A stretch of DNA of 64,000 nt from a bacterium. Its GTDB lineage: Bacteria; Bacteroidota; Bacteroidia; Bacteroidales; FEN-979. Below are positions 5,492-50,569 of the stretch, piece by piece. A program made the position numbers and the translations under genes. The stretch lies in assembly GCA_037141055.1 (NCBI GenBank), contig JBAXDH010000002.1:17057-81056 (forward strand), read 5' to 3'. Positions within the stretch are counted from its first letter, which is position 1; every line of letters starts with the position of its first letter. The notes under the pieces were generated by a model. It saw only the letters and a program-made list of their open reading frames with translations, did no database searches and was not told where the DNA came from.

Positions 5492-5635
5492 GGAATAACT
5501 TCCGGCATGTGATTTTCCGGAAAAATTATAAATATTCGGACAGAAGCAAAGTTACGAAGATTCAAATGATCCTTAATCCGGAATTAATATTTACTTTTAC
5601 GCCTTCAAATGCAATGCTGCGTTAACTTTATCTTC

Positions 5636-5980
5636 ATGAAAATCAAGGGCTTTTTTTTATTCTTAATACTTCTGGCCACGATCAGCAGTTGCAAACATGT
5701 GGTTCAGTACGATTGCACGGGGGCCACACCTACCTATACGGCAAATGTCAAGCCCATTCTCGATGCAACCTGTGCGCTTTCCAATTGTCATTCGGGACAT
5801 GGTGAAGTATTCGACCTTTCCACCTATGCAAGTGCCTCATCGGCAAGTAAGAAAAAAAGTTTCATGGGATCGATCCAGCACATGCCATTCTACGAGAAAA
5901 TGCCCAGGAATGCGGACCGGCTGACAGATTCACAGATTCACGTCCTATCTTGCTGGTGCCAGAACGGTTCGCCGGAATAG
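5636..5980 (+). CDS. Small lipoprotein with cytochrome-c-like (PSCyt1-like) motif, function unknown
   Basis: The ORF track starts at 5609. The lipoprotein signal MKIKGFFLFLILLATISSC starts at ATG 5636. KPILDATCALSNCH ... MP..ADRLT..QI..L..W resembles planctomycete-type cytochrome c domains, but the motif is C-x4-CH, not CxxCH. Confidence 0.5.
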   Translation: MKIKGFFLFLILLATISSCKHVVQYDCTGATPTYTANVKPILDATCALSNCHSGHGEVFDLSTYASASSASKKKSFMGSIQHMPFYEKMPRNADRLTDSQIHVLSCWCQNGSPE

Positions 5981-5985
5981 TCAGA

Positions 5986-6051
5986 GTGACAAGTGACAAA
6001 TGACAAATGATAAATAAGCCGGATTTTCATTTGTAATTTGTCACTTGTAAT
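5986..6051. terminator. 25-bp inverted repeat built from GTGACAA heptamers; bidirectional terminator-like hairpin
   Basis: The left arm gtgacaagtgacaaatgacaaatga (5986-6010) pairs with tcatttgtaatttgtcacttgtaat (6027-6051): 22 Watson-Crick pairs, 1 G-U and 2 mismatches. The loop is 16 nt. It lies between the convergent stops at 5980 and 6054. Confidence 0.8.
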
Positions 6052-6053
6052 TC

Positions 6054-7592
6054 TTACAATGGGATATTCCCATGTTTCTTCGGTGGGTTGGTTTTACTCT
6101 TGTTCTGTGTAAGTTCCAGCGCTTGGATGAGTTTGGTTCTGGTTTGGCGCGGAAGGATAATCTCATCCACATAACCCAGTTCGGCAGCTTTATAAGGGTT
6201 GGCAAACGTTTCGCGGTAATGATCGACAGCCTCGGCGCGATCGGCCTCATTCAGTTTCCCCTTGTGAATGATATTTACGGCGCCCTCTGGACCCATTACC
6301 GCAATTTCCGCGGTCGGATATGCATAATTTACATCCGCACCAATGTGTTTGCTCGACATCACATCATAGGCTCCGCCGTATGCCTTGCGGGTGATCAGGG
6401 TGATCTTTGGCACGGTAGCTTCAGAAAATGCATACAGTAATTTGGCTCCATGCTTGATGATCCCGCCAAATTCCTGGTTTGTACCCGGAAGGAAGCCTGG
6501 AACGTCGACCAGCGTAATGAGCGGAATGTTGAAGCAATCGCAGAACCTGACAAAGCGTGCGCCCTTGATGGACGAGTTGATATCCAGCACCCCGGCCAGG
6601 AAAGCAGGCTGGTTTGCGACGATTCCAACCGGTTTTCCGCCCAGGCGGGCAAACCCGGTAAGGATATTCTGCGCATAATGGGGCATCACCTCGAAAAAGT
6701 TATGATTGTCAACAACCGTGCTGATGAGTTCTTTCATGTCGTACGGTTTGTTGGGATCGGCCGGAACCAGCGTCTGGAGTTTCTCGTCCTGCCGCATTAC
6801 ATCGTCGGTACATGGCTGTGCAGGCGGATCTTCCATATTATTGGCAGGCAGGAAACTCATCAGTTCGCGGATCATCAGGATAACCTGTTCGTCGTTTTCA
6901 GCCGCGAAATGCGCCACACCGCTTTTCGAATTGTGCGACATGGCCCCGCCAAGTTCTTCCATGGTCACCTCTTCGTGGGTAACCGTTTTAATTACTTCGG
7001 GTCCTGTTACGAACATATAGCTCGATTCCTTGACCATGAAAATGAAATCGGTGATGGCCGGGGAATAGACGGCACCTCCTGCACAGGGGCCCATGATGGC
7101 TGAGATCTGCGGGATCACGCCCGAAGCCATCACATTCCTGTAAAAAATATCGGCATAACCGGCGAGGCTTTCAACGCCTTCCTGGATACGGGCTCCGCCC
7201 GAGTCGTTCAGCCCGATGAGCGGCGCACCCATTCGCATGGCCATGTCCATGATTTTAACCACCTTGTCGGCATTGGCCCGGCTCATGGTACCCCCGAAAA
7301 CAGTAAAATCCTGGGCAAAGACAAATGTGAGGCGCCCGTCGATTTTGCCGTAACCCGTCACCATGCCATCGCCCGGCACCTTGTTATGTCCCATCCCGAA
7401 ATCATGGCAACGGTGCATGACCAGTTTGTCCATTTCAACGAATGAGTTCACATCAAGCAGCGTGAGAATACGCTCGCGGGCAGTCATCCTCCCGTTTTTA
7501 TGGATCTTGGCAATTTTATCAACACCGCCACCCAACTCAGCCTTGCGATTTTTATCGTCAAAAAACTGAAAACGTTCTTCTATGGTTTGCAT
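6054..7592 (-). CDS. Acyl-CoA carboxylase carboxyltransferase subunit (propionyl-CoA carboxylase beta / methylmalonyl-CoA carboxyltransferase family)
   Basis: 512-aa ORF with blocks typical of this family ([36 protein letters not shown]). It is last in a three-gene minus-strand operon with biotin carboxylase and BCCP. Confidence 0.9.
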
Positions 7593-7641: not shown

Positions 7642-8175
7642 CTATTCCGCTGGTTCGCTGGTGATATTTTCCAATTTTATCATCACCTGGTGCGAATCAA
7701 CGGTGTCGCCTTCTTTGACAAGAATTGCCTGTACAATTTTATCGCCGGTTGCTTTGAATTCACTTTGCATCTTCATGGCTTCCACCACGATGAGTGTATC
7801 GCCTGTTGCAACGACATCACCGACTTTGACAGGAATCTTGACGATCTTGCCGGGCATGGGGGACGCAACCTGGTTGGATCCTTCGACTTCCTGGCCTTTG
7901 TTGCGGTTGCTTATATACTTTGATTCTGCATCGATGACCTCAGCGTTGAAAGTTTTCGCAAAAGTGTTCACGATGAACTTTTTGCTCGACTCCCCCCTGA
8001 TCAGCTCAACATTGTACGAATGCCCGTTGTATAAAATGGAATAGACCCCGTTTTCAACTTCCACAATGTCGAGGTCATATTTATGGTCATCAACTTTGAT
8101 CAGGGCTTTGTTCCCAACCCGGTTGAGCAGTTCAATCTTTGCCGTGCGGTGTCCGATACTTATTTCGTATGCCAT
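7642..8175 (-). CDS. Biotin carboxyl carrier protein (biotin/lipoyl attachment domain)
   Basis: 177-aa ORF. The C-terminal biotinyl domain carries the EAMKM biotinylation motif (VVEAMKMQSEF). It sits between biotin carboxylase and carboxyltransferase. Confidence 0.85.
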   Translation of the reverse strand: MAYEISIGHRTAKIELLNRVGNKALIKVDDHKYDLDIVEVENGVYSILYNGHSYNVELIRGESSKKFIVNTFAKTFNAEVIDAESKYISNRNKGQEVEGSNQVASPMPGKIVKIPVKVGDVVATGDTLIVVEAMKMQSEFKATGDKIVQAILVKEGDTVDSHQVMIKLENITSEPAE

Positions 8176-8184
8176 GGTACAGGG

Positions 8185-9693
8185 TTATAAACGTAAAACA
8201 TTTCGTTTGCGGCCAAAATCCTTCCAGTTTGAGCCAAGCTCTTCACTGAATTTCTGGGGCTGAACTTCGGCCAGTTTGTCGAGGTAATCAATGAATGCAG
8301 TGATGATGGCCATATCCTCGCATTCGGTGCCGCATTTTTTAGTCGTGAACAACCGGTCATGATTGTCCTCGATGAAATGTGTGTTGTACTTTCCCTCGAT
8401 GAATTCAGGTGCATCCATGATTCGTTCCAGGAACTTGATGGAGGTTTTCACACCGGTGATCTTGTATTCATATAAAGCACGACGCATCCGCGCTATTGAT
8501 TCCTTGCGGGTTTCACCCCAGGTGATCAGTTTGCAGATCATCGGATCGTAATGCATCGGGATCTCATAGCCTTCGTAAACATAACCGTCATAGCGAACAC
8601 CCAGGCCGAGCGGAACTGTAATGTGCTTGATTACGCCGGGGTTCGGCATGAAATTGTTGTCGGGGTCTTCGGCATAAATCCTGCACTGGATGGCATGCCC
8701 GTACTGGTGAAGGTCCTCCTGCCTGAATGAAAGCGGCAGGCCGTTTGCAATGTTGATCTGCTCCTTAACGAGGTCAACTCCCACAACGCGTTCTGTTACA
8801 GGATGTTCAACCTGCAAACGGGTATTCATTTCGAGGAAATAATAATCCAGCTGATCGCTGACGATGAATTCGATGGTGCCGGCGCCTTCATAATTTACCG
8901 CTTTGGCTGCAGCAACCGCCTTTTCGCCCATCTCCTGCCTCAGCGCGGGATTCATCAGCGGCGACGGAGTCTCTTCGATAACCTTCTGATGACGGCGCTG
9001 GATGGAACATTCGCGTTCAAAGAGATGAACGACATTGCCATGCTGGTCGGCCAGTATCTGAAATTCAATATGATGGGGTGATTCAATATACTTTTCGATG
9101 TAAACGGCATCGTCGCCGAACGCATTCATGGCTTCCGATTTTGCCATACGGAGCGACGGGATCAGCTCCTCCATCTTTTTAACCAGGCGCATCCCCTTGC
9201 CGCCGCCACCTGCGGAGGCTTTGATCATGATGGGCAGGCCGATCTCGTTGACCACTTCAACCGCCTTTACTTCATCGGAAAGCTTTTCCTTGGTTCCCGG
9301 CACCACCGGGACCCCGGAGGCAATCATGGTTTGACGGGCAGTGATTTTATCACCCATGGTCCGGATAGCATAGGCATCGGGTCCGATAAATTTGATCCCT
9401 TCTGCTTTGCAACGTTCTGAAAATCCGGCATTTTCCGAAAGGAAACCGTATCCCGGGTGGATGGCATCGGCCCCCGACTGTTTAGCTGCACCGATGATGG
9501 CATCAACATTCAGATAGCTTTCCCGTGAAGGAGCCGGTCCGATGCAATAAGCTTCATCCGCATAGCGTACATGCATGGCCTGACGGTCGGCATCCGAAAA
9601 CACCGCAACAGTCACAATACCAAGCTCCCTGCATGATCGCATCACTCTTACCGCAATCTCCCCGCGGTTGGCCACCAATACTTTTTTAATCAT
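8185..9693 (-). CDS. accC: Biotin carboxylase (ATP-grasp) subunit of acetyl/acyl-CoA carboxylase
   Basis: 502-aa ORF with N-terminus MIKKVLVANRGEIAVRV, glycine-rich loop KASAGGGGKGMR and the EMNTRLQVEHPVTE block. Confidence 0.92.
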   Translation of the reverse strand: MIKKVLVANRGEIAVRVMRSCRELGIVTVAVFSDADRQAMHVRYADEAYCIGPAPSRESYLNVDAIIGAAKQSGADAIHPGYGFLSENAGFSERCKAEGIKFIGPDAYAIRTMGDKITARQTMIASGVPVVPGTKEKLSDEVKAVEVVNEIGLPIMIKASAGGGGKGMRLVKKMEELIPSLRMAKSEAMNAFGDDAVYIEKYIESPHHIEFQILADQHGNVVHLFERECSIQRRHQKVIEETPSPLMNPALRQEMGEKAVAAAKAVNYEGAGTIEFIVSDQLDYYFLEMNTRLQVEHPVTERVVGVDLVKEQINIANGLPLSFRQEDLHQYGHAIQCRIYAEDPDNNFMPNPGVIKHITVPLGLGVRYDGYVYEGYEIPMHYDPMICKLITWGETRKESIARMRRALYEYKITGVKTSIKFLERIMDAPEFIEGKYNTHFIEDNHDRLFTTKKCGTECEDMAIITAFIDYLDKLAEVQPQKFSEELGSNWKDFGRKRNVLRL

Positions 9694-16340: not shown

Positions 16341-16676
16341 ATGGAATCGACCCGTCAACAAAAAATATCACGCCTGATTCAAAAGGACCTGGGCGTCATT
16401 TTTCAGCAGGAGAGCAGGAACCTTTTCGATGGTTCACTGATCACCGTAACCAAGGTCCAGGTAAGCAAAGACCTGGCGATTGCAAAGGTGCACCTGAGCC
16501 TGTTCATTACCACGGACAAGCAAATACTGCTGGATAAAATCCGCCACCACGGGCGTGAAGTGCGTCACATGCTGGCACAACGCGTTCACAACCAGCTGCG
16601 GGTTATGCCGGATCTCCAGTTTTTCCTGGATGATTCGCTGGATTATATTGAGAATATTGACAGTTTGCTAAAATGA
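16341..16676 (+). CDS. rbfA: Ribosome-binding factor A
   Basis: 111-aa ORF. Its N-terminus (STRQQKISRLIQKDLGVIFQ) and size are typical of RbfA. Confidence 0.85.
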   Translation: MESTRQQKISRLIQKDLGVIFQQESRNLFDGSLITVTKVQVSKDLAIAKVHLSLFITTDKQILLDKIRHHGREVRHMLAQRVHNQLRVMPDLQFFLDDSLDYIENIDSLLK

Positions 16677-16679
16677 AAA

Positions 16680-16712
16680 GGCGGACAAGCGGACGGGCGG
16701 ACAGGCGGACGG
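16680..16712. repeat. Octamer tandem array GGCGGACA x4
   Basis: ggcggaca agcggacg ggcggaca ggcggacg g, starting 4 nt after the rbfA stop. Confidence 0.9.
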
Positions 16713-16752
16713 TTTTGCATTTTGAATTTGCATTTTAACTTTTGAATTTTTT
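16713..16752 (+). promoter_or_regulatory. AT-rich TTTGCATTTTGAA-family repeat abutting the methyltransferase start codon
   Basis: ttttgcattttgaatttgcattttaacttttgaatttttt ends 2 nt before ATG 16755. The 16-mer TTTGCATTTTGAATTT recurs, in gene orientation, just upstream of sufC (62851-62881). Confidence 0.5.
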
Positions 16753-16754
16753 CC

Positions 16755-17576
16755 ATGCAGTACGATCCTATTAAAAAAACCCTGGGAAAGGTCTTCAACA
16801 CAACACCATTTCTGCGGGTATTGTTTTACAAGCTGCTCGACCTGCTGCTGTTGCGCGCCTGGCATGTGCATGACGAAATCAGGTCATGGGCCGGATCCCG
16901 AAGCGGCAACCGTGCTTCGAAACTTTTCATCCTCGACGCAGGTTCGGGTTTCGGGCAATATACCTATTTTCTTTCCGGCCTCTCTCCAGCATGGTTTGTC
17001 GACGCCGTGGATGTAAAGGATGAACAGATTGACGATTGCAATGCATTTTTCACGCGGATCGGACGAAAAAATGTGCTTTTTGAAAAGGCCGATCTGACAC
17101 AATTCTCAAAGCCCGACCGGTTCGACTTCATCCTTTCCGTTGATGTGATGGAACACATCGGCGACGACGAAGCTGTGTTCCGTAATTTCTTTGATTCCCT
17201 TACCCAAAATGGCATGCTGCTGATATCGACTCCTTCCGACCAGGGCGGTTCTGATGTTCACGACCATGAAGAAGGAGAATCATTCATCGATGAACATGTA
17301 CGCGACGGGTATAACATCACCGAAATCCGGGAAAAGCTTGAACGTGCAGGGTTTACAAAAACTGAAGCGCGCTTTACATACGGAACTCCGGGAAAAATAG
17401 CCTGGAAGTTGTCCATGAAATACCCCATCCTGATGCTCAATGCCACGAAACTCTTTTTCATCCTGCTGCCTTTTTATTATATCCTCACCTACCCCATCGC
17501 TTTTTTCTGCAACTGGCTGGATACGAAAATGAAGCATGAGACCGGGACAGGGTTGGTGGTGAAGGCGTGGAAGTAG
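16755..17576 (+). CDS. Class I SAM-dependent methyltransferase
   Basis: 273-aa ORF with SAM-binding motif I ILDAGSGFGQYT and post-I/II acidic residues (DAVDV, SVDVMEHI). Confidence 0.75.
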   Translation: MQYDPIKKTLGKVFNTTPFLRVLFYKLLDLLLLRAWHVHDEIRSWAGSRSGNRASKLFILDAGSGFGQYTYFLSGLSPAWFVDAVDVKDEQIDDCNAFFTRIGRKNVLFEKADLTQFSKPDRFDFILSVDVMEHIGDDEAVFRNFFDSLTQNGMLLISTPSDQGGSDVHDHEEGESFIDEHVRDGYNITEIREKLERAGFTKTEARFTYGTPGKIAWKLSMKYPILMLNATKLFFILLPFYYILTYPIAFFCNWLDTKMKHETGTGLVVKAWK

Positions 17577-17590
17577 GTGGGTGGAAAGGC

Positions 17591-17622
17591 GTGAGTGGTG
17601 AGTCGTGAGTCGTGAGTGGTGA
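17591..17622. repeat. Heptamer tandem array GTGAGTS x4.5
   Basis: gtgagtg gtgagtc gtgagtc gtgagtg gtga, between the methyltransferase stop (17576) and the FtsX-like gene. The same family occurs at 38113-38136. Confidence 0.9.
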
Positions 17623-27629: not shown

Positions 27630-27665
27630 GATTGACGATTGGACGATTGACGGTTGACGATTTTC
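27630..27665. repeat. GATTGAC-family tandem array (5 units)
   Basis: gattgac gattggac gattgac ggttgac gattttc in the divergent manA/LOG spacer. Confidence 0.9.
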
Positions 27666-27745
27666 GGAAATTTAAATTTCAAAAATGTGTTGCAGGATTC
27701 TGCTTACCTTTGAATCCTTTTTCAAAAACAAAAATACAGATTTTA

Positions 27746-28339
27746 ATGATTAAAACCCTTTGTGTTTTCTGCGGTTCAAGTGTCGGACGACAGCCGCTGT
27801 ATTCGCATCATGCCGTTAAACTTGCCGAACACCTCCTTGCCGAAAAAATAACCCTGGTATACGGGGGAGCCAATGTCGGGCTGATGGGAATTCTTGCCGA
27901 TACGATGCTGGCCGGCGGCGGAAAAGTAATCGGGGTTATGCCCAAATCGCTTGTTGCACGCGAGGTTGCCCATGAGAACCTGACCGAAATGCACATCGTC
28001 GACGGGATGCAGGAACGCAAGGCACTGATGGCGAATCTGTCGGATGCTTTTGCCGCGCTTCCCGGTGCCTACGGAACACTCGACGAACTCTTCGAGGTAC
28101 TTACCTGGAACCAGCTCGGCATCATCAATAAACCCATCGGGTTGCTGAACATCGACAATTTTTTCAACCCCATGCTGCAGATGCTCGATCATATGGTGGC
28201 TGAAAAGTTCCTTCGCCCGGAACATCGCAGCATGCTGCTCTGCGGAAATGACTTTGCCGAATTGCTGAAGGAACTTGAGGAATACCGGCCTGTTGCTGCG
28301 GAGAAGTGGATTGAACGGTTGAAAGCCGGGGCAATTTAA
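27746..28339 (+). CDS. LOG-family (TIGR00730) nucleotide 5'-monophosphate nucleosidase
   Basis: The ORF-track start at 27632 is a TTG inside repeat 27630-27665. ATG 27746 gives MIKTLCVFCGSS. YGGANVGLMG and PGAYGTLDEL motifs are diagnostic of LOG proteins. Confidence 0.85.
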   Translation: MIKTLCVFCGSSVGRQPLYSHHAVKLAEHLLAEKITLVYGGANVGLMGILADTMLAGGGKVIGVMPKSLVAREVAHENLTEMHIVDGMQERKALMANLSDAFAALPGAYGTLDELFEVLTWNQLGIINKPIGLLNIDNFFNPMLQMLDHMVAEKFLRPEHRSMLLCGNDFAELLKELEEYRPVAAEKWIERLKAGAI

Positions 28340-28387
28340 TGCCAGCAATGCAAACAATGCAAGCAATGCAGACAATGCAGGAAATGG
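28340..28387. repeat. Nonamer tandem array TGCARNCAA x5
   Basis: tgccagcaa tgcaaacaa tgcaagcaa tgcagacaa tgcaggaaa tgg, starting immediately after the LOG stop codon (28337-28339). Confidence 0.9.
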
Positions 28388-28402
28388 TTTGGTTAGATTC
28401 TT

Positions 28403-28443
28403 TTTGATTTTTACAATTTGATTTTGCAATTTGATTTTTTGAT
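28403..28443 (+). promoter_or_regulatory. AT-rich TTTGATTTT(T)RCAA repeat abutting the kinase-like gene start
   Basis: tttgatttttacaa tttgattttgcaa tttgattttttgat is followed directly by ATG 28444. Its composition and position resemble 16713-16752. Confidence 0.45.
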
Positions 28444-29001
28444 ATGATTATCATCGGAATTACAGGAACGCTTGGCGCAGGAAAGGGGACGGTGGTTGAA
28501 TACCTTGTCGAAAAAAAAGGATTTAACCATTATTCGGTGCGATCCTACCTGCTTAAAGAAATCAACCGTCGCGGAATGCCGGAAAACCGCGACAGCATGG
28601 TGACGGTGGCGAATGAATTGCGCGCCCTTCACGGGCCGTCGTTTGTTACGGATCGGTTGTATGATGAGGCTGCACTTGTCGGGAAAGACTGCATTATTGA
28701 AAGCATCCGCACACCAGGGGAGATTGATTCGCTGCGGGGGAAAGGCGATTTTTTTCTTTTTGCCGTGGATGCTGACGCCCGCCTGAGATATGAACGTATT
28801 GTGGAACGGTCGTCGGAAACCGATAACGTTTCATTCAGCACCTTCATTGAAAATGAAACCCGGGAAATGAGCACCGCCGATCCGAATAAGCAGAATCTCC
28901 AGGCATGCATCAGGCAGGCCGATTTCGTCCTGAACAACGACGGCTCAAAGGCGGACCTCTTCCGTAACGTTGAAAAAGTCCTGGAAAAGATTACCGGGTA
29001 A
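28444..29001 (+). CDS. P-loop nucleoside/nucleotide kinase-like protein (dephospho-CoA kinase-like fold)
   Basis: 185-aa ORF with N-terminal P-loop IGITGTLGAGKGT. Its size and layout resemble small NMP/CoaE-like kinases. The substrate is unknown. Confidence 0.6.
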   Translation: MIIIGITGTLGAGKGTVVEYLVEKKGFNHYSVRSYLLKEINRRGMPENRDSMVTVANELRALHGPSFVTDRLYDEAALVGKDCIIESIRTPGEIDSLRGKGDFFLFAVDADARLRYERIVERSSETDNVSFSTFIENETREMSTADPNKQNLQACIRQADFVLNNDGSKADLFRNVEKVLEKITG

Positions 29002-38112: not shown

Positions 38113-38136
38113 GTGAGTCGTGAGTGGTAGAGTCGT
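38113..38136. repeat. GTGAGTS-family heptamer array (about 3 units)
   Basis: gtgagtc gtgagtg gtagagtc gt, in the 42-bp spacer between the permease stop (38139) and the TauE start (38096). Confidence 0.8.
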
Positions 38137-38138
38137 TC

Positions 38139-39893
<1,755 letters not shown>

Positions 39894-39954
39894 GTGGAAA
39901 TTTTCGCTAAAGGTAATTTTTTTTCCAATGGGGCTGGTGTTGAATGAGTAAACA

Positions 39955-39980
39955 GGCGGACAGGCGGGCGGGCGGACAGG
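39955..39980. repeat. Octamer tandem array GGCGGACA-family x3.25
   Basis: ggcggaca ggcgggcg ggcggaca gg in the divergent permease/NAD(P)H-binding gene spacer. Confidence 0.85.
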
Positions 39981-40015
39981 TCTGTTTTATTTGTAACTTC
40001 GTGCAAAATTTTCCT

Positions 40016-40633
40016 ATGAAAATTGCTGTATTTGGCGCCAGCGGAAGAACCGGTATTTTAATTGTTTACCAGGCGCTTAACCTGGGCCATAGCGTTACTG
40101 CTTTTGCCCGCCAGTCGTCGAAAGTCACGATTCAGCACAAAAACCTCCGGGTGATCGAGGGCGATGTATTGGATTTTGAGAATGTGAAAACGGCTGTTGA
40201 AGGACAGGACGCGGTTTTATGTGCACTCGGCGTGGATAAAAATAAACCAGGCACCCTTTTGTCCGAGGGAACCCGGAATATCCTGAGAGCGATGGAATCG
40301 ACGGGGGTAAAGCGGTTTATCTGCATGTCGTCGGCGGGCATCCTTGGAAATGACGCCGGTTTCTGGTTCGGAAAAGTATTCATGCCTTTGTTCCTGAAGC
40401 ATGTTTTTGAAGATAAAAAACGTCAGGCAGAGGTGGTCAGGGAAAGCAACGCCGAATGGGTGATCATTCGCCCGACCGGTCTTACCGATGCACCAAAAAC
40501 CAACACGTACAAAATAAACCTTGAAATTCCCACCTCAAGGAGCATCCCCCGGGCAGATGTGGCGGATTTCATGCTCAAACTGCTTGTCGACAAAAAATAT
40601 GACGGGAAAATGCCTGCACTTTCAAGTTCATGA
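40016..40633 (+). CDS. NAD(P)H-binding (atypical SDR / flavin reductase-like) protein
   Basis: The ORF track starts at 39944 and runs through repeat 39955-39980. ATG 40016 gives the Rossmann N-terminus MKIAVFGASGRTG. Confidence 0.75.
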   Translation: MKIAVFGASGRTGILIVYQALNLGHSVTAFARQSSKVTIQHKNLRVIEGDVLDFENVKTAVEGQDAVLCALGVDKNKPGTLLSEGTRNILRAMESTGVKRFICMSSAGILGNDAGFWFGKVFMPLFLKHVFEDKKRQAEVVRESNAEWVIIRPTGLTDAPKTNTYKINLEIPTSRSIPRADVADFMLKLLVDKKYDGKMPALSSS

Positions 40634-47508: not shown

Positions 47509-49335
47509 GTGGAAATTGTGAAAGAAAATTCAAAGGGCTTCCTTGCATTCCTGCTGCTGTTTATATTCCCGGTATCGGTACTCTACAGCCACGTCGATCA
47601 GGCCGGATATACCAGGATCTTGATTTCAGAGATCAGGGCCGCCGGGAACGACAGTGTGAAAATCAGCAAACTCGGCAGCCTTGCCTTCTTTTACCTCGAC
47701 TATGCCGGCAATGGCCGTTTAGCCGACAGTGTCAGCGAAACAGCCATCCGGCTTGCCGAGAAAAGTCACCGGCCCGAATTGCTGTTCCTTGCATATAACA
47801 TCTACGCCGAATCGAACGATCTGCACGAATTCAACCGGAAGGCGCTTGGCTATGCGTTGAAGGCGGAACAGATTCAGTTCAACGCAAAAAGTCCGGAACA
47901 GGTATTCCGTAATGATAAAAACCTGGTATCCGTTTTTCTGGCGGGCTACGGGTTCGACAAAGCCCTGGAGTACAGTTACAAGATGCTTTCGATAGCAGGA
48001 ACCTTGGAAAATGTTGAATTAAAGGCGGAAAGTTATCTCTCCATCGGGCAAAGCCTTGAAGGTAAAAGTCAGAAAGTTGAAGCCTTCCGAAACTACCTGA
48101 ACGCCGCAAGCCTTGCCGACAGGTCAGGCAACCTGGATTTAAGAATCATCTGCTGTTCCAGGCTGTCGGATTTCTACAACTTCAATAAGTTATACGACAA
48201 GGCTACCCGCTATAAATTGGTGCAGCGCGATCTGATTGTCAGGAACATGCCCGTAGATTCGGTTGCGCTGATGTGGGCGGAATATGAACTGCAGGTAATC
48301 GACCTCAATTCGAACTATAACGAGCTGTATGAAGGAAACATGAAGACCATTCTTGATTTCGCCGTGAGAAACAACCACAGGAGGATGCTGAACTATGAGA
48401 TTGCGCTGATTCGCACGCATTACATTGAAGCGAACAAAATAGTCCTACTGCATGATTTTTATTACAAAAAATTCCCGGGAGAACTTGCAAGGCTTTCTTC
48501 AGACAATCCCGCACTGTTTTTCCGGCTCAAGGCGTTTTTTTGCGAAGAGGAGCACATGCCTGATTCTGCGCTCTATTATTTCACCCTGGCCGAAACAAGA
48601 TTGCAATCCGATGCGAATCCGATCCTTCAATCGAAATTTTATTCCCGCTTCGGGCAGTTCCTCGTTCGGCACGGCTTCAGGGACAAAGCTATCGGGGCAT
48701 TTACAAAATCGATGGAGCTTGCCAGAACTGCATCCTATATTGAATACATGCTGGGCGCAGCCAAACAGCTTGAAGAATTGTACGCGGGCAAAGGAGATTA
48801 TAAAAATGCGTTCGCTTACTCCGTGTTAAACAAAGCGTTAAACGACAGCATCAGCAACATGTCGAAAAAGGATCAGTTGCTGATCATGGAAATCGACCAT
48901 GAAACCAGGCAGCGGGACCTTGCCTTTGAGCTGGAAAAACAGTCCACCGCAAGGAGGCACTATCTGCAATATACCGCCATGACCATCGGGATCCTGACCG
49001 TGTTTGTCATTCTGATCATGCTGGGCAGTTTAAAAGTTCCCGAATGGATCATCCGGATGCTGGGATTCTTCTCCTTTATCTTTCTGTTTGAATTCATTGT
49101 TTTGCTGGCTGACAAGATGATTGAAGAGATTACCCATGGCGAGCCCTGGAAAATACTGCTTATCAAGATATTCCTCATCGGAATCCTTCTTCCCCTTCAT
49201 CACAGCATTGAAAAGCGTGTCATCACGTACCTGCTTAACCACAAACTGATCAATATTCCCGGCTTTTCGATGGTAAAGAGGTTCAGGGCGCGGGGGAAGA
49301 AGAAGAAGTTAACGGGTGAAAAGGTGACAGGGTAA
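47509..49335 (+). CDS. TPR-like repeat protein with C-terminal transmembrane helices
   Basis: 608-aa ORF with a GTG start per the ORF track. It has N-terminal signal-like and helical repeat regions and three to four hydrophobic helices near the C-terminus. Its last codons and TAA stop (49333-49335) lie inside octamer array 49323-49410. Confidence 0.6.
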   Translation: MEIVKENSKGFLAFLLLFIFPVSVLYSHVDQAGYTRILISEIRAAGNDSVKISKLGSLAFFYLDYAGNGRLADSVSETAIRLAEKSHRPELLFLAYNIYAESNDLHEFNRKALGYALKAEQIQFNAKSPEQVFRNDKNLVSVFLAGYGFDKALEYSYKMLSIAGTLENVELKAESYLSIGQSLEGKSQKVEAFRNYLNAASLADRSGNLDLRIICCSRLSDFYNFNKLYDKATRYKLVQRDLIVRNMPVDSVALMWAEYELQVIDLNSNYNELYEGNMKTILDFAVRNNHRRMLNYEIALIRTHYIEANKIVLLHDFYYKKFPGELARLSSDNPALFFRLKAFFCEEEHMPDSALYYFTLAETRLQSDANPILQSKFYSRFGQFLVRHGFRDKAIGAFTKSMELARTASYIEYMLGAAKQLEELYAGKGDYKNAFAYSVLNKALNDSISNMSKKDQLLIMEIDHETRQRDLAFELEKQSTARRHYLQYTAMTIGILTVFVILIMLGSLKVPEWIIRMLGFFSFIFLFEFIVLLADKMIEEITHGEPWKILLIKIFLIGILLPLHHSIEKRVITYLLNHKLINIPGFSMVKRFRARGKKKKLTGEKVTG

Positions 49336-49410
49336 CAGGGGAACAGGGTAACAAGGTAACAGGGTAACAGGGTAACAGGGTAACAGGGTAACAGGGTAAC
49401 AGAGTGACGG
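49323..49410. repeat. Octamer tandem array GGTAACAG x11
   Basis: ggtgacag ggtaacag gggaacag ggtaacaa, then ggtaacag x6, then agtgacgg. The second unit provides the TAA stop of the TPR-like gene. Confidence 0.95.
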
Positions 49411-49460
49411 GGGAGCCGGCAAACTGATGACTATTGTATAATCCTGTGCCCTTGATCCCG

Positions 49461-49494
49461 TTCACTTGTCACTTGTCACTTGTCACGTTGTCAC
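49461..49494. repeat. Heptamer tandem array TTGTCAC x4 (reverse complement of the GTGACAA family)
   Basis: ttcac ttgtcac ttgtcac ttgtcac g ttgtcac. Same family as the hairpin arms at 5986-6051. Confidence 0.9.
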
Positions 49495-49530
49495 TAAATA
49501 TCAATCATTCACAAATAAACCATACTGCAT

Positions 49531-49653
49531 ATGAAAACAAAAATTGGAATCCTGGGATCGGGGGTGGTTGCGCAGGTGCTGGGCAGCGGATTCATGAAAC
49601 ACGGATATGACGTAATGCCTGGAACCCGCGATCTTTCAAAACTTGAAGGCTGA
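49531..49653 (+). pseudogene. Remnant (N-terminal 40 codons) of an NAD(P)-binding F420-dependent-NADP-reductase-like gene
   Basis: ATG 49531 to TGA 49651-49653 encodes MKTKIGILGSGVVAQVLGSGFMKHGYDVMPGTRDLSKLEG. This matches the Rossmann N-terminus of ~220-aa NADPH-dependent F420 reductase-family proteins. The rest of the gene is absent. Confidence 0.55.
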
Positions 49654-49665
49654 CAGGAAAGAGCC

Positions 49666-50088
49666 TCAGGCACCTTTCATTTTAAAGACTGTGGCGTAGA
49701 GTTTCATCTGTTTGATCATGGCCGACAAGCCGTTGCTGCGGGTGGGCGACAGGTGTTCCTGGAGCCCGATCCGGTTAATGAATTCCATCCTGGCTCCGAT
49801 AATGTCATCAGGGGTCTGGCCGGAAAGCACACTGATCAGGAGGTTTACTATACCTTTGGTGATAATTGCATCACTTTCGCCGGTAAATACCACCCGGCCC
49901 TCTTTCATTGCTGCATGAAGCCATACCTTTGACTGGCAGCCGGTAATCAGGTACTGATCGGTTCTATAACGGTCATCGATCTTTGGCAAAGTCTTTCCCA
50001 GGTCAATCAGGTAGTTATATTTATCCATCCAGTCGTCGAACATGTCGAACTCGGTGATAATCCTGGATTCTATTTCGGGGATGGTCAT
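49666..50088 (-). CDS. sufE: Cysteine desulfuration protein SufE
   Basis: 140-aa ORF with the conserved persulfide-acceptor context YLITGCQSKVWLHA. Confidence 0.85.
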   Translation of the reverse strand: MTIPEIESRIITEFDMFDDWMDKYNYLIDLGKTLPKIDDRYRTDQYLITGCQSKVWLHAAMKEGRVVFTGESDAIITKGIVNLLISVLSGQTPDDIIGARMEFINRIGLQEHLSPTRSNGLSAMIKQMKLYATVFKMKGA

Positions 50089-50206
50089 GGGGGTGTGGGT
50101 TTGGGGGGCAAAGGTAAGGAAAAGGAGGACAGGTCACTTGTCTGCTTTTTTTGTTAAAATATGTTAATTAATAGTACCATGTATTGCATAGTACTAAGTT
50201 TTGCAT

Positions 50207-50214
50207 TATATTTG
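50207..50214 (+). promoter_or_regulatory. -7 box TATATTTG 4 nt upstream of the padR ATG (possible leaderless transcript)
   Basis: The sequence reads TATATTTG-ccgc-ATG(50219). ATTG lies 20 nt upstream (50183-50186). Confidence 0.4.
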
Positions 50215-50218
50215 CCGC

Positions 50219-50569
50219 ATGAATACAGAAAATCAAAATGCCCAGATGCGAAAAGGAGTTCTCGAACTCTGTATCCTGGCGATCATCGCAGAACAGGACG
50301 CATACGCTTCCGACATCATCACCAGGTTGAAGGAAGCCAGACTCATTGTTGTGGAAGGAACCCTCTATCCTTTGCTCACACGATTAAAGAACGACGGACT
50401 GACGGTTTACCGGTGGGAGGAATCAAAGTCGGGACCGCCGCGCAAATATCACCAGGCAACTGAGCAGGGGCTGATAGCCCTGGCGGAACTGAAATCCGAC
50501 TGGCTGGACCTTGTCCTTTCGGTGGAGAAAATCGTCGGCATTCCACCAGGTAAGGCTGATGAAGCCTGA
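50219..50569 (+). CDS. PadR-family transcriptional regulator
   Basis: The ORF-track start is TTG 50201 and the first ATG is 50219. Winged-helix blocks KGVLELCILAII and EGTLYPLLTRLKNDGL..W......PRKYH are PadR signatures. Confidence 0.85.
   Translation: MNTENQNAQMRKGVLELCILAIIAEQDAYASDIITRLKEARLIVVEGTLYPLLTRLKNDGLTVYRWEESKSGPPRKYHQATEQGLIALAELKSDWLDLVLSVEKIVGIPPGKADEA

Follow-up and report, generated by a model that had tools for sequence, protein, structure and literature searches.

Heptameric short tandemly repeated repetitive (STRR) sequences are reportedly found in cyanobacteria, an observation that is credited to Mazel and co-workers in 1990. In enterobacteria, the repetitive extragenic palindromes (REPs) and bacterial interspersed mosaic elements (BIMEs) lie outside of genes, at gene 3′ ends or between cistrons, where they can form hairpins and are thought to stabilise the upstream mRNA; REPs are single imperfect palindromes spread by REP-associated tyrosine transposases (RAYTs). 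Long simple sequence repeats (LSSRs) with units of 5-11 nt were treated by Mrazek, Guo and Shah (2007, as summarised in PMC4679880). In Xanthomonas and Nostoc, G-quadruplex-forming, G-rich repeats of the form GGGNATC or GGGGA(C/T)T lie preferentially on the sense strand at most 50 bp from a stop codon, or antisense upstream of an open reading frame (ORF), and they also occur as inverted pairs with the potential to form stem-loops (Rehm et al. 2015, PMC4692102). Direct repeats of the heptamer TAACTGA have been described in Beggiatoaceae, cyanobacteria and five Bacteroidetes (MacGregor 2015, PMC4679880). Here, we analyse a 64,000-nt stretch of DNA from a bacterium of the Bacteroidales (FEN-979; assembly GCA_037141055.1, contig JBAXDH010000002.1, positions 17,057 to 81,056 of the forward strand; hereafter the window), in which a gene for a tetratricopeptide repeat (TPR)-like membrane protein ends in an octamer array that is followed by a heptamer array and by the remnant of a reductase gene. 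On balance, we think it probable that this junction consists of two unrelated things, namely a clade-wide repeat module, likely a structured 3′-end element, and a reductase gene that was truncated by a separate deletion.

The TPR gene and its repeats are arranged as follows, in coordinates of the window:

47509 to 49335, plus strand: gene for the TPR-like membrane protein, 608 amino acids (aa), from the ORF list, with its last codons and stop inside the octamer array.
49307 to 49322, plus strand: degenerate octamer-like units GTTAACGG and GTGAAAAG in the coding tail of the TPR gene, from reading the sequence.
49323 to 49410, plus strand: tandem array of 11 GGTAACAG-type octamers, G-rich on the sense strand, from Tandem Repeats Finder (TRF), a pattern search, a regular expression for G-quadruplexes (G4) and three assemblies.
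49411 to 49458, plus strand: non-repetitive spacer between the arrays, the interior of a predicted long hairpin, from an RNA fold of 49300-49505.
49459 to 49495, plus strand: tandem array of the heptamer TTGTCAC, 4.7 copies, from TRF.

TRF places the octamer array at 49323-49402 (period 8, 10.0 copies, 93% matches, consensus GGTAACAG), and its units run in the order GGTGACAG, GGTAACAG, GGGAACAG, GGTAACAA and six perfect copies of GGTAACAG, followed by a degenerate eleventh unit, AGTGACGG, at 49403-49410. The 608-aa ORF ends in AAG GTG ACA GGG TAA, such that the stop codon (49333-49335) falls in the second unit of the array. A preliminary description of this DNA had eleven octamers at 49323-49410 supplying the TAA stop of the TPR-like gene, and TRF and direct reading agree with it. 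A three-unit octamer pattern with up to 3 mismatches finds nine matches in the window, all at this site, and none in 100 dinucleotide shuffles; the GGTAACAG array itself is present at a single site within the 64 kb. The heptamer array is called by TRF at 49462-49495 (4.7 copies, 92% matches) and begins with a degenerate unit, followed by three contiguous copies of TTGTCAC at 49466-49486 and, after a 1-nt insertion, a further copy at 49488-49494. It had been reported as four copies at 49461-49494; the array is real, though its start was placed a few bases off. The corresponding three-unit heptamer pattern, again with up to 3 mismatches, had no match when the window was shuffled 100 times with its dinucleotides preserved. 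The reverse complement of TTGTCAC is GTGACAA, that is, the octamer unit GGTGACA(A/G) minus one G, and written as RNA the two units read GGUAACAG and UUGUCAC.

Both arrays are ordinary members of a dispersed, polar, stop-proximal repeat family in an uncultured Bacteroidales clade. When arrays with a period of 6-10 nt and at least 3 copies are counted, the window contains 14 of them, 12 of which are intergenic or at a gene edge, even though maximal ORFs cover ~95% of the sequence. Across the clade (the window plus 23 loci), 46 such arrays, mostly octamers, were found in 301 kb, all but five of them not deep inside coding sequence (41/46), and arrays of this kind are present in most intergenic spacers of the clade genomes. 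Outgroup loci from Lentimicrobiaceae and Chitinophagaceae had one array in 146 kb. Several units recur within the window: GGCGGACA at 16679 and 39952, GTGAGTC at 17590 and 38113, and TTGTCAC, or its reverse complement GTGACAA, at 49459 and in a minus-strand array at 5986-6013.

The family extends to metagenomes, where an exact search for three consecutive GGTAACAG units in JGI contigs yielded at least 120 stretches, with up to five GGTAACAG arrays on one contig among the matches listed (109 kb, assigned to Bacteroidales by its HflX protein). A tblastn search for orthologous segments with the window proteins against these metagenome loci gave only remote matches. Among the matches listed, 93 distinct arrays had usable flanks, and their position was scored relative to an upstream ORF of at least 80 aa. 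Sixty of the 93 follow the end of an ORF on the G-rich strand, as against 8 that are antisense; 22 give the stop codon by their own TAA, and another 23 start 0-10 nt past it. These arrays have a median of 8 units and a maximum of 30. A second, different array within 120 nt lies downstream in 31 of the 93 cases and upstream in 5, and these downstream arrays comprise 18 heptamers (e.g., ATTCGTC, ATTGGTC, GTAATTC) and six complementary octamers. Such second arrays are thus recurrent, which argues that the octamer and heptamer arrays of the window form an ordered pair rather than a coincidence. Furthermore, the units at different loci share the core ACAGG at 8-nt spacing. Our literature searches turned up no account of this family, or of any octamer arrays in Bacteroidales.

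Other arrays of the window vary this arrangement. At 16679-16750, four copies of GGCGGACA directly after the stop of the ORF 16341..16676 are followed by a T-rich heptamer array (TTTTGAA/TTTTGCA, 5.6 copies) that stops at the following start codon; octamer and heptamer come in the same order as at the main locus, and the two arrays are non-complementary. At 17562-17622, the G-rich unit GTGAGTC/GTGAGTG (4.7 copies), which is found again at 38113-38136, spans the TAG stop of the ORF 16755..17576 and reaches the next gene. A 9-nt array, AATGCAAAC in 4.7 copies, begins at the TAA stop of the ORF 27632..28339 (28338-28439), and behind it, shortly before the ATG at 28444, lies a T-rich, TTTG-rich array with a 13-14-nt unit. 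An array can also lie within a gene: at 38369-38421, 7.4 copies of GGGATAC/GGGATGC are located inside the ORF of an amino-acid permease (38139..39893, minus strand), with the array on the antisense strand and an in-frame translation of PHPVSRIPYPISRIPH. At 39944-40020, the called start (39944) of an NAD-binding gene makes the array ACAGGCGG encode MSKQADRRAGGQ..., and a more typical start, MKIAVFGASG, lies ~70 nt downstream; judging from this, the called start is probably wrong and the array probably lies 5′ of the gene. On one Bacteroidales metagenome contig (L088, 3583-3710 and 9247-12228), repeat-derived peptides are present within housekeeping proteins: the linker of DNA polymerase I (PolA) reads GDKVTGLQGDKVKSDKVTGLQ... 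and ...MANGDVSMANGDVSMANGQSLMA, and apolipoprotein N-acyltransferase (Lnt) carries an insert, with a GGTAACAG array at its end.

The history of the TPR site can be followed in related genomes. Species-representative genomes were scanned with a profile of the TPR protein, which gave 36 loci. Six of these (L005, L006, L010, L011, L017, L023) carry a GGYGGRCA-type octamer array of 4.5-19.5 units at the orthologous TPR 3′ end, and two others (L003, L007) have degenerate octamer traces there. The array lies past the TPR stop in L006 and L011, and inside the ORF in L005, L010, L017 and L023. The unit GGYGGACA is stop-free in every frame and is read through, and any octamer array gives one 8-aa peptide in all three frames; the protein tails of the homologues are translations of the arrays, e.g., ...GGQADKRTGGQADKRT..., which corresponds to GGCGGACA three times per 8 aa. 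The in-ORF arrays therefore account for the repeat-like C-termini of the homologues and for the spread of their total lengths (~583-662 aa). Moreover, AACGGGTG-type units, as in the coding tail of the window's TPR gene, make up the arrays of L018, L011 and L023. A repeat-derived C-terminus of the TPR-like protein had been suspected earlier and, as far as these read-through tails indicate, this is what it is. Among the relatives, the array at this site ranges from 0 to ~20 units, while three assemblies of the window's species are identical, and an array has been retained at this site in lineages whose TPR protein is only 61-72% identical to that of the window.

The protein itself has 171 homologues in metagenome-assembled genomes of Bacteroidales and other Bacteroidota, many of them with Pfam TPR_12 (PF13424), and in these the C-terminal transmembrane block is conserved and the basic tail behind it variable. 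From its sequence, it may be a sensor-like membrane protein. There is a weak partial match of residues 374-504 to the NCBIfam model of the Porphyromonas FimS sensor kinase (43 bits, where the cut-off is 600); the protein is without any kinase domain, and its gene is conserved beside DXS and Fe-S assembly genes.

How could such a module have arisen, and what might it do? We infer that the octamer array at the 3′ end of the TPR gene dates back to a common ancestor and that arrays of this kind expand, contract and homogenise through slipped-strand mispairing, as is suggested by the homogenised units within an array, the drift of the unit between species and the variable copy number. The unit would have drifted from GGYGGACA in the relatives to GGTAACAG in the window species, where a G-to-A change would have put a TAA into every unit and clipped the protein tail, such that array length has ceased to matter for the protein. 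In the RNA, pairing of the two arrays is predicted to give a long imperfect hairpin its outer stem, and the run of perfect GGGUAACA units could adopt a G-quadruplex. Most likely, the module serves as a structured 3′-end or intercistronic RNA element, which, much like the REPs and BIMEs or the G-rich repeats of Xanthomonas and Nostoc, could hold up exonucleases or limit read-through; it does not resemble a switch. Quasi-palindrome mutagenesis by template switching is an established process, and it is conceivable that the complementary arms were mirrored in this way.

The folding predictions that bear on this proposal concern three loci. In the window region 49300-49505, octamer units 1-3 pair with the heptamer array as the outer stem of the long imperfect hairpin, with a minimum free energy of -63.4 kcal/mol (z -3.3), and none of 200 shuffles was equally stable. 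In the relative L005, perfectly complementary arrays are the arms of a near-perfect predicted stem of ~40 bp (z -9.2). At 5975-6060 of the window, heptamer arrays are predicted to make a 30-bp stem between convergent genes (z -7.4). The arrays at the latter site (5986-6052) are four copies of GTGACAA and a mutually complementary ATTTGTA/ATTTGTC array, and they sit exactly between the stops of the convergent ORFs 5609..5980 (plus) and 6054..7592 (minus).

As to the quadruplex, the perfect part of the octamer array has the unit GGGTAACA, a G3N5 pattern, and a canonical G4 motif (at least 4 G3 tracts, loops of 1-7 nt) was found by regular expression at 49362-49396, inside the array. Only two such motifs exist in the 64-kb window, both of them in arrays, the other one in the GGGATAC array at 38374-38418. 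For the array alone, the energy model gives -15.6 kcal/mol with the G4 and -12.5 kcal/mol without it.

Several observations weigh against the structured-element proposal. Many relatives (L004, L009, L012-L016, L019) are without an array at the TPR end, which makes it dispensable. A complementary arm is present downstream of only ~10% of the metagenomic GGTAACAG arrays listed. In the context of the whole region, the G4 lowers the energy from -63.4 to -63.6, a gain of only 0.2 kcal/mol, and the orthologous GGCGGACA arrays have G2 tracts only, which means that a three-tetrad G4 is not conserved. A terminator scan detected no terminator-like site between 49336 and 49530, and the hairpin is followed by AAATATC, not by a T-run. 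Finally, the gene models behind the position statistics are longest-ORF approximations.

Neither structure serves as a general explanation of the arrays. We rejected the hairpin in this role, as at least 2 complementary units lie downstream of only 3 of 99 arrays, with any such signal at ~10%, and likewise the G-quadruplex, given that the orthologous GGCGGACA arrays are without G3 tracts and that the energy gain in context is negligible.

Two further scans covered the vicinity. A search of 49200-50300 against Rfam 15 returned no family, the only hit being sR52 at chance level (22 bits, with a gathering score of 50); the sigma-70 promoter model that was part of the terminator scan is ill-suited to Bacteroidota. 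A terminator-like hairpin with a T-run, GGACAGGTCACTTGTCT GCTTTTTTTG, is located in the spacer between sufE and a divergent PadR gene (50127-50152). Its arms are single copies of an octamer-like (GACAGG) and a heptamer-like (CACTTGTC) unit, and it may show how arrayed arms originate.

A different view of the same data is that the arrays are a neutral by-product, i.e., functionless replication slippage that is seeded wherever it is tolerated, in 3′ flanks and disordered protein tails. The genomes of this clade would then slip unusually often on 7-8-nt units, and the bias in position and strand would merely trace where selection tolerates arrays. The loss of arrays in many relatives and the drift of the unit sequence fit this view, as do the arrays that have invaded tolerant coding sequence (the permease at 38369-38421, the PolA linker and Lnt in L088), and heptamers are the commonest bacterial long simple sequence repeats, for which polymerase slippage has been named as the origin (Mrazek 2007, as summarised in PMC4679880). 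However, independent random seeding does not predict one unit at more than 90 unlinked sites, a strand polarity of 60:8 and an array order of 31:5. Nor does it sit easily with a core of ACAGG at 8-nt spacing that is common to units across loci, or with the retention of an array at the orthologous site in lineages whose TPR proteins are only 61-72% identical. We regard the neutral explanation as the main rival, though a rather unlikely one.

More speculatively, the octamer arrays and the heptamer arrays that trail them could be binding platforms for a clade-specific oligomeric RNA- or single-stranded DNA-binding protein, by which mRNA 3′ ends would be set or neighbouring genes coupled. We give this idea a small chance only. 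If true, it would amount to a repeat-based post-transcriptional system that works without canonical terminators, a counterpart of the cyanobacterial STRRs.

The second component of the junction, in addition to the putative structured element, is the truncated reductase gene, for which the following features are relevant:

49531 to 49653, plus strand: pseudogene with the first ~38 codons of an F420_oxidored/NpdG-like NAD(P)-binding reductase, then 2 unrelated codons and a stop, from Pfam and orthologues.
about 49643 to 49665, no strand assigned: deletion junction, with ~0.55 kb absent (reductase codons 39-214 and 3′ flank) and the residue GAAGGCTGACAGGAAAGAGCC in its place, from a codon-aligned comparison with 11 relatives.
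49666 to 50088, minus strand: sufE, convergent with the remnant, from Pfam SufE (E 1.3e-46).

The 40-aa ORF matches Pfam F420_oxidored (PF03807) at profile positions 1-37 of 94 (E 1.8e-4, 22.5 bits, cut-off 21.6), which leaves the dinucleotide-binding domain incomplete, so that the ORF does not qualify as a reductase. In 11 relatives, a complete reductase ORF of 214 aa lies downstream of the TPR gene, which over the first 38 residues of the reductase shares 82-92% identity with the 40-aa ORF; two of these full-length proteins were scanned and cover positions 1-94 of 94 of PF03807, and the one that was scanned against NCBIfam gave a weak match to NpdG. Synteny thus confirms the suggestion of the preliminary description that the short ORF is a truncated F420-reductase-like gene, and on these alignments it is a pseudogene. 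The remnant had been described as 40 codons at 49531-49653 ending 13 nt before sufE, which holds except that the distance from its end to the sufE stop codon (49666) is 12 nt.

Homology to the intact reductases ends after ...TCAAAACTTG (TCA AAA CTT G, codon 38) and resumes at the sufE stop region, TCAGGCACC. Microhomology or arrays were sought at the breakpoints, and the 21-nt junction residue contains GACAGG, which was not assignable. The breakpoints lie ~150 nt from the nearest array, the heptamer one, next to which the start of the reductase gene and its upstream region are intact. By this comparison, the reductase was truncated by a separate deletion of ~0.55 kb that reaches from about codon 39 to shortly beyond the sufE stop, and neither of its breakpoints is in an array.

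In nearly all close relatives, a block of DXS, an Fe-S assembly protein, a hypothetical protein and the TPR gene is kept on the upstream side, whereas gene content directly downstream of the TPR gene is variable in the clade. In L003 and L007, sufE follows the TPR gene directly, and several other relatives have unrelated neighbours there. Four relatives (L011, at 7960-8420; L013; L015; L016) harbor a small MarR-like gene with TTGTATATACAA palindromes on its flanks between the TPR gene and the reductase; it is missing from the window and from seven other relatives.

This variability, with the reductase alone, a MarR-like gene plus reductase, sufE or a helicase following the TPR gene, speaks weakly for the idea that the arrays promoted or marked rearrangements and caused the truncation, as the preliminary description had proposed. 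It might be added that the GACAGG of the junction residue resembles an array unit, that L005 and L010 have an array after the reductase stop, and that a role in rearrangement was the subject of speculation for such repeats (MacGregor 2015, PMC4679880). However, five of the six array-bearing relatives (L005, L010, L011, L017, L023) have an intact reductase immediately downstream of the orthologous array, the 5′ breakpoint is intragenic (codon 38-39) and array-free, and the gene start and the upstream region beside the heptamer array are undamaged. Since arrays occur at most spacers, their nearness to a deletion is expected by chance. The idea that the arrays mark or promote deletion junctions was thus not sustained, and we consider it improbable.

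Could the octamer array instead be a contingency locus, in which the copy number switches the C-terminus of the TPR protein or the expression of the downstream gene by phase variation? In L010, L017 and L023, where the array is inside the ORF, gain or loss of one 8-nt unit shifts the frame in which translation leaves the array, and one metagenome assembly, ERZ1426841, has a spacer that is 82 nt shorter than that of the window. In the window species, however, every GGTAACAG unit has a TAA, and any three units in a row close every frame, so that copy number cannot alter the TPR protein; translation ends in unit 2 at any copy number, and the downstream gene is a pseudogene. A C-terminus that varies with array copy number, for which the preliminary description had suggested a check, is therefore not to be expected in the window species, though the tails of the relatives do vary in length. 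Furthermore, the arrays of three strain-level assemblies are identical, and the genes associated with arrays include housekeeping genes such as those for Lnt and PolA (L088), the same lack of a functional pattern that was noted by Rehm et al. (PMC4692102). A switch of this kind is thus very improbable here.

The length of the arrays was compared between assemblies. Copies of the locus in ENA were found via sufE and the 40-aa ORF, as an exact look-up of the 608-aa protein came back empty, the window being one residue off the database copies. Two metagenome assemblies from different samples, ERZ4223250 and ERZ4224321, carry the locus with both arrays identical to those of the window in unit number and order, and single-nucleotide polymorphisms (SNPs) distinguish the three copies, an A/G in the TPR tail and a T/G inside the heptamer array. 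The agreement of the arrays in spite of these SNPs argues that the array length is not an assembly artefact, a possibility that had been raised at the outset. In ERZ1426841, the 608-aa protein is the L001/P0001 version (tail KKLAGEKVTG, one residue off that of the window) and the 40-aa product is identical; the spacer of this assembly from the TPR gene to the 40-codon ORF is 113 nt, versus 195 nt in the window, and may represent a real length variant or a collapsed assembly. Thus, while this shorter spacer and the tendency of tandem repeats to collapse in short-read assemblies might be held to favour an artefact, three SNP-differing assemblies that match base for base across both arrays, and an 88-nt array that is presumably below typical read length, make it an explanation of negligible weight.

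For the locus itself, the outcome is largely corrective: neither scars nor drivers of the deletion, the arrays have a length that can be reproduced, and a pseudogene is the proper annotation of the short ORF. At the level of the family, the regularities are sharper than in comparable repeats, in that the arrays abut or supply the stop codon, have a fixed polarity with respect to the upstream gene and follow a fixed order of octamer and heptamer; moreover, an array was kept at one orthologous site while its unit drifted. These regularities offer concrete handles on the long-standing question, posed since about 1990, of what STRRs and long simple sequence repeats are for. There is also a practical aspect, since stop-free arrays such as GGYGGACA end up in protein databases as translated repeat tails that look artificial, and homologues are predicted to be too long as a result.

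How does this family compare with the described systems? With REPs and BIMEs it shares an extragenic location at gene ends or between cistrons and the ability to fold into hairpins. However, the arms in the Bacteroidales family are tandem arrays, and most arrays are without a complementary arm; no link to a transposase was seen, no search aimed at it having been made. The resemblance to the Xanthomonas and Nostoc repeats is closer with respect to position, as the array of the window is G-rich with G3 tracts, lies on the sense strand close to a stop codon and contains a G4 motif. In contrast to the heptamers GGGNATC and GGGGAYT, its unit is the octamer GGGTAACA, which leaves 5-nt loops; the GGTAACAG family has a median of 8 units and no preference for four, the GGCGGACA arrays of the relatives are without G3 tracts, and the G4 is a predicted one.

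The TAACTGA repeats are similar in being intergenic heptamers, some of them in Bacteroidetes, with several different heptamer arrays per spacer, and their start-proximal position resembles that of the heptamers which trail the octamers in the Bacteroidales family. They differ in their unit, which is TTGTCAC, ATTCGTC or ATTGGTC in our case, and PMC4679880 mentions no stop-codon octamer as a partner.

Close, too, are the LSSRs and the cyanobacterial STRRs, with which the arrays share head-to-tail units of 7-8 nt, a strong enrichment in non-coding sequence and the use of few unit types at many loci, as well as a restriction to one lineage and perhaps a copy number that varies between relatives. 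What sets the Bacteroidales family apart is that it is dominated by octamers that abut or supply the stop codon and that are often followed by a second array of another period. With head-to-tail units beyond chance, over-representation in non-coding DNA and one unit at many unlinked loci, the feature belongs to a known kind of bacterial repeat; the single locus is ordinary within its family, and it is the family that is worth a dedicated census.

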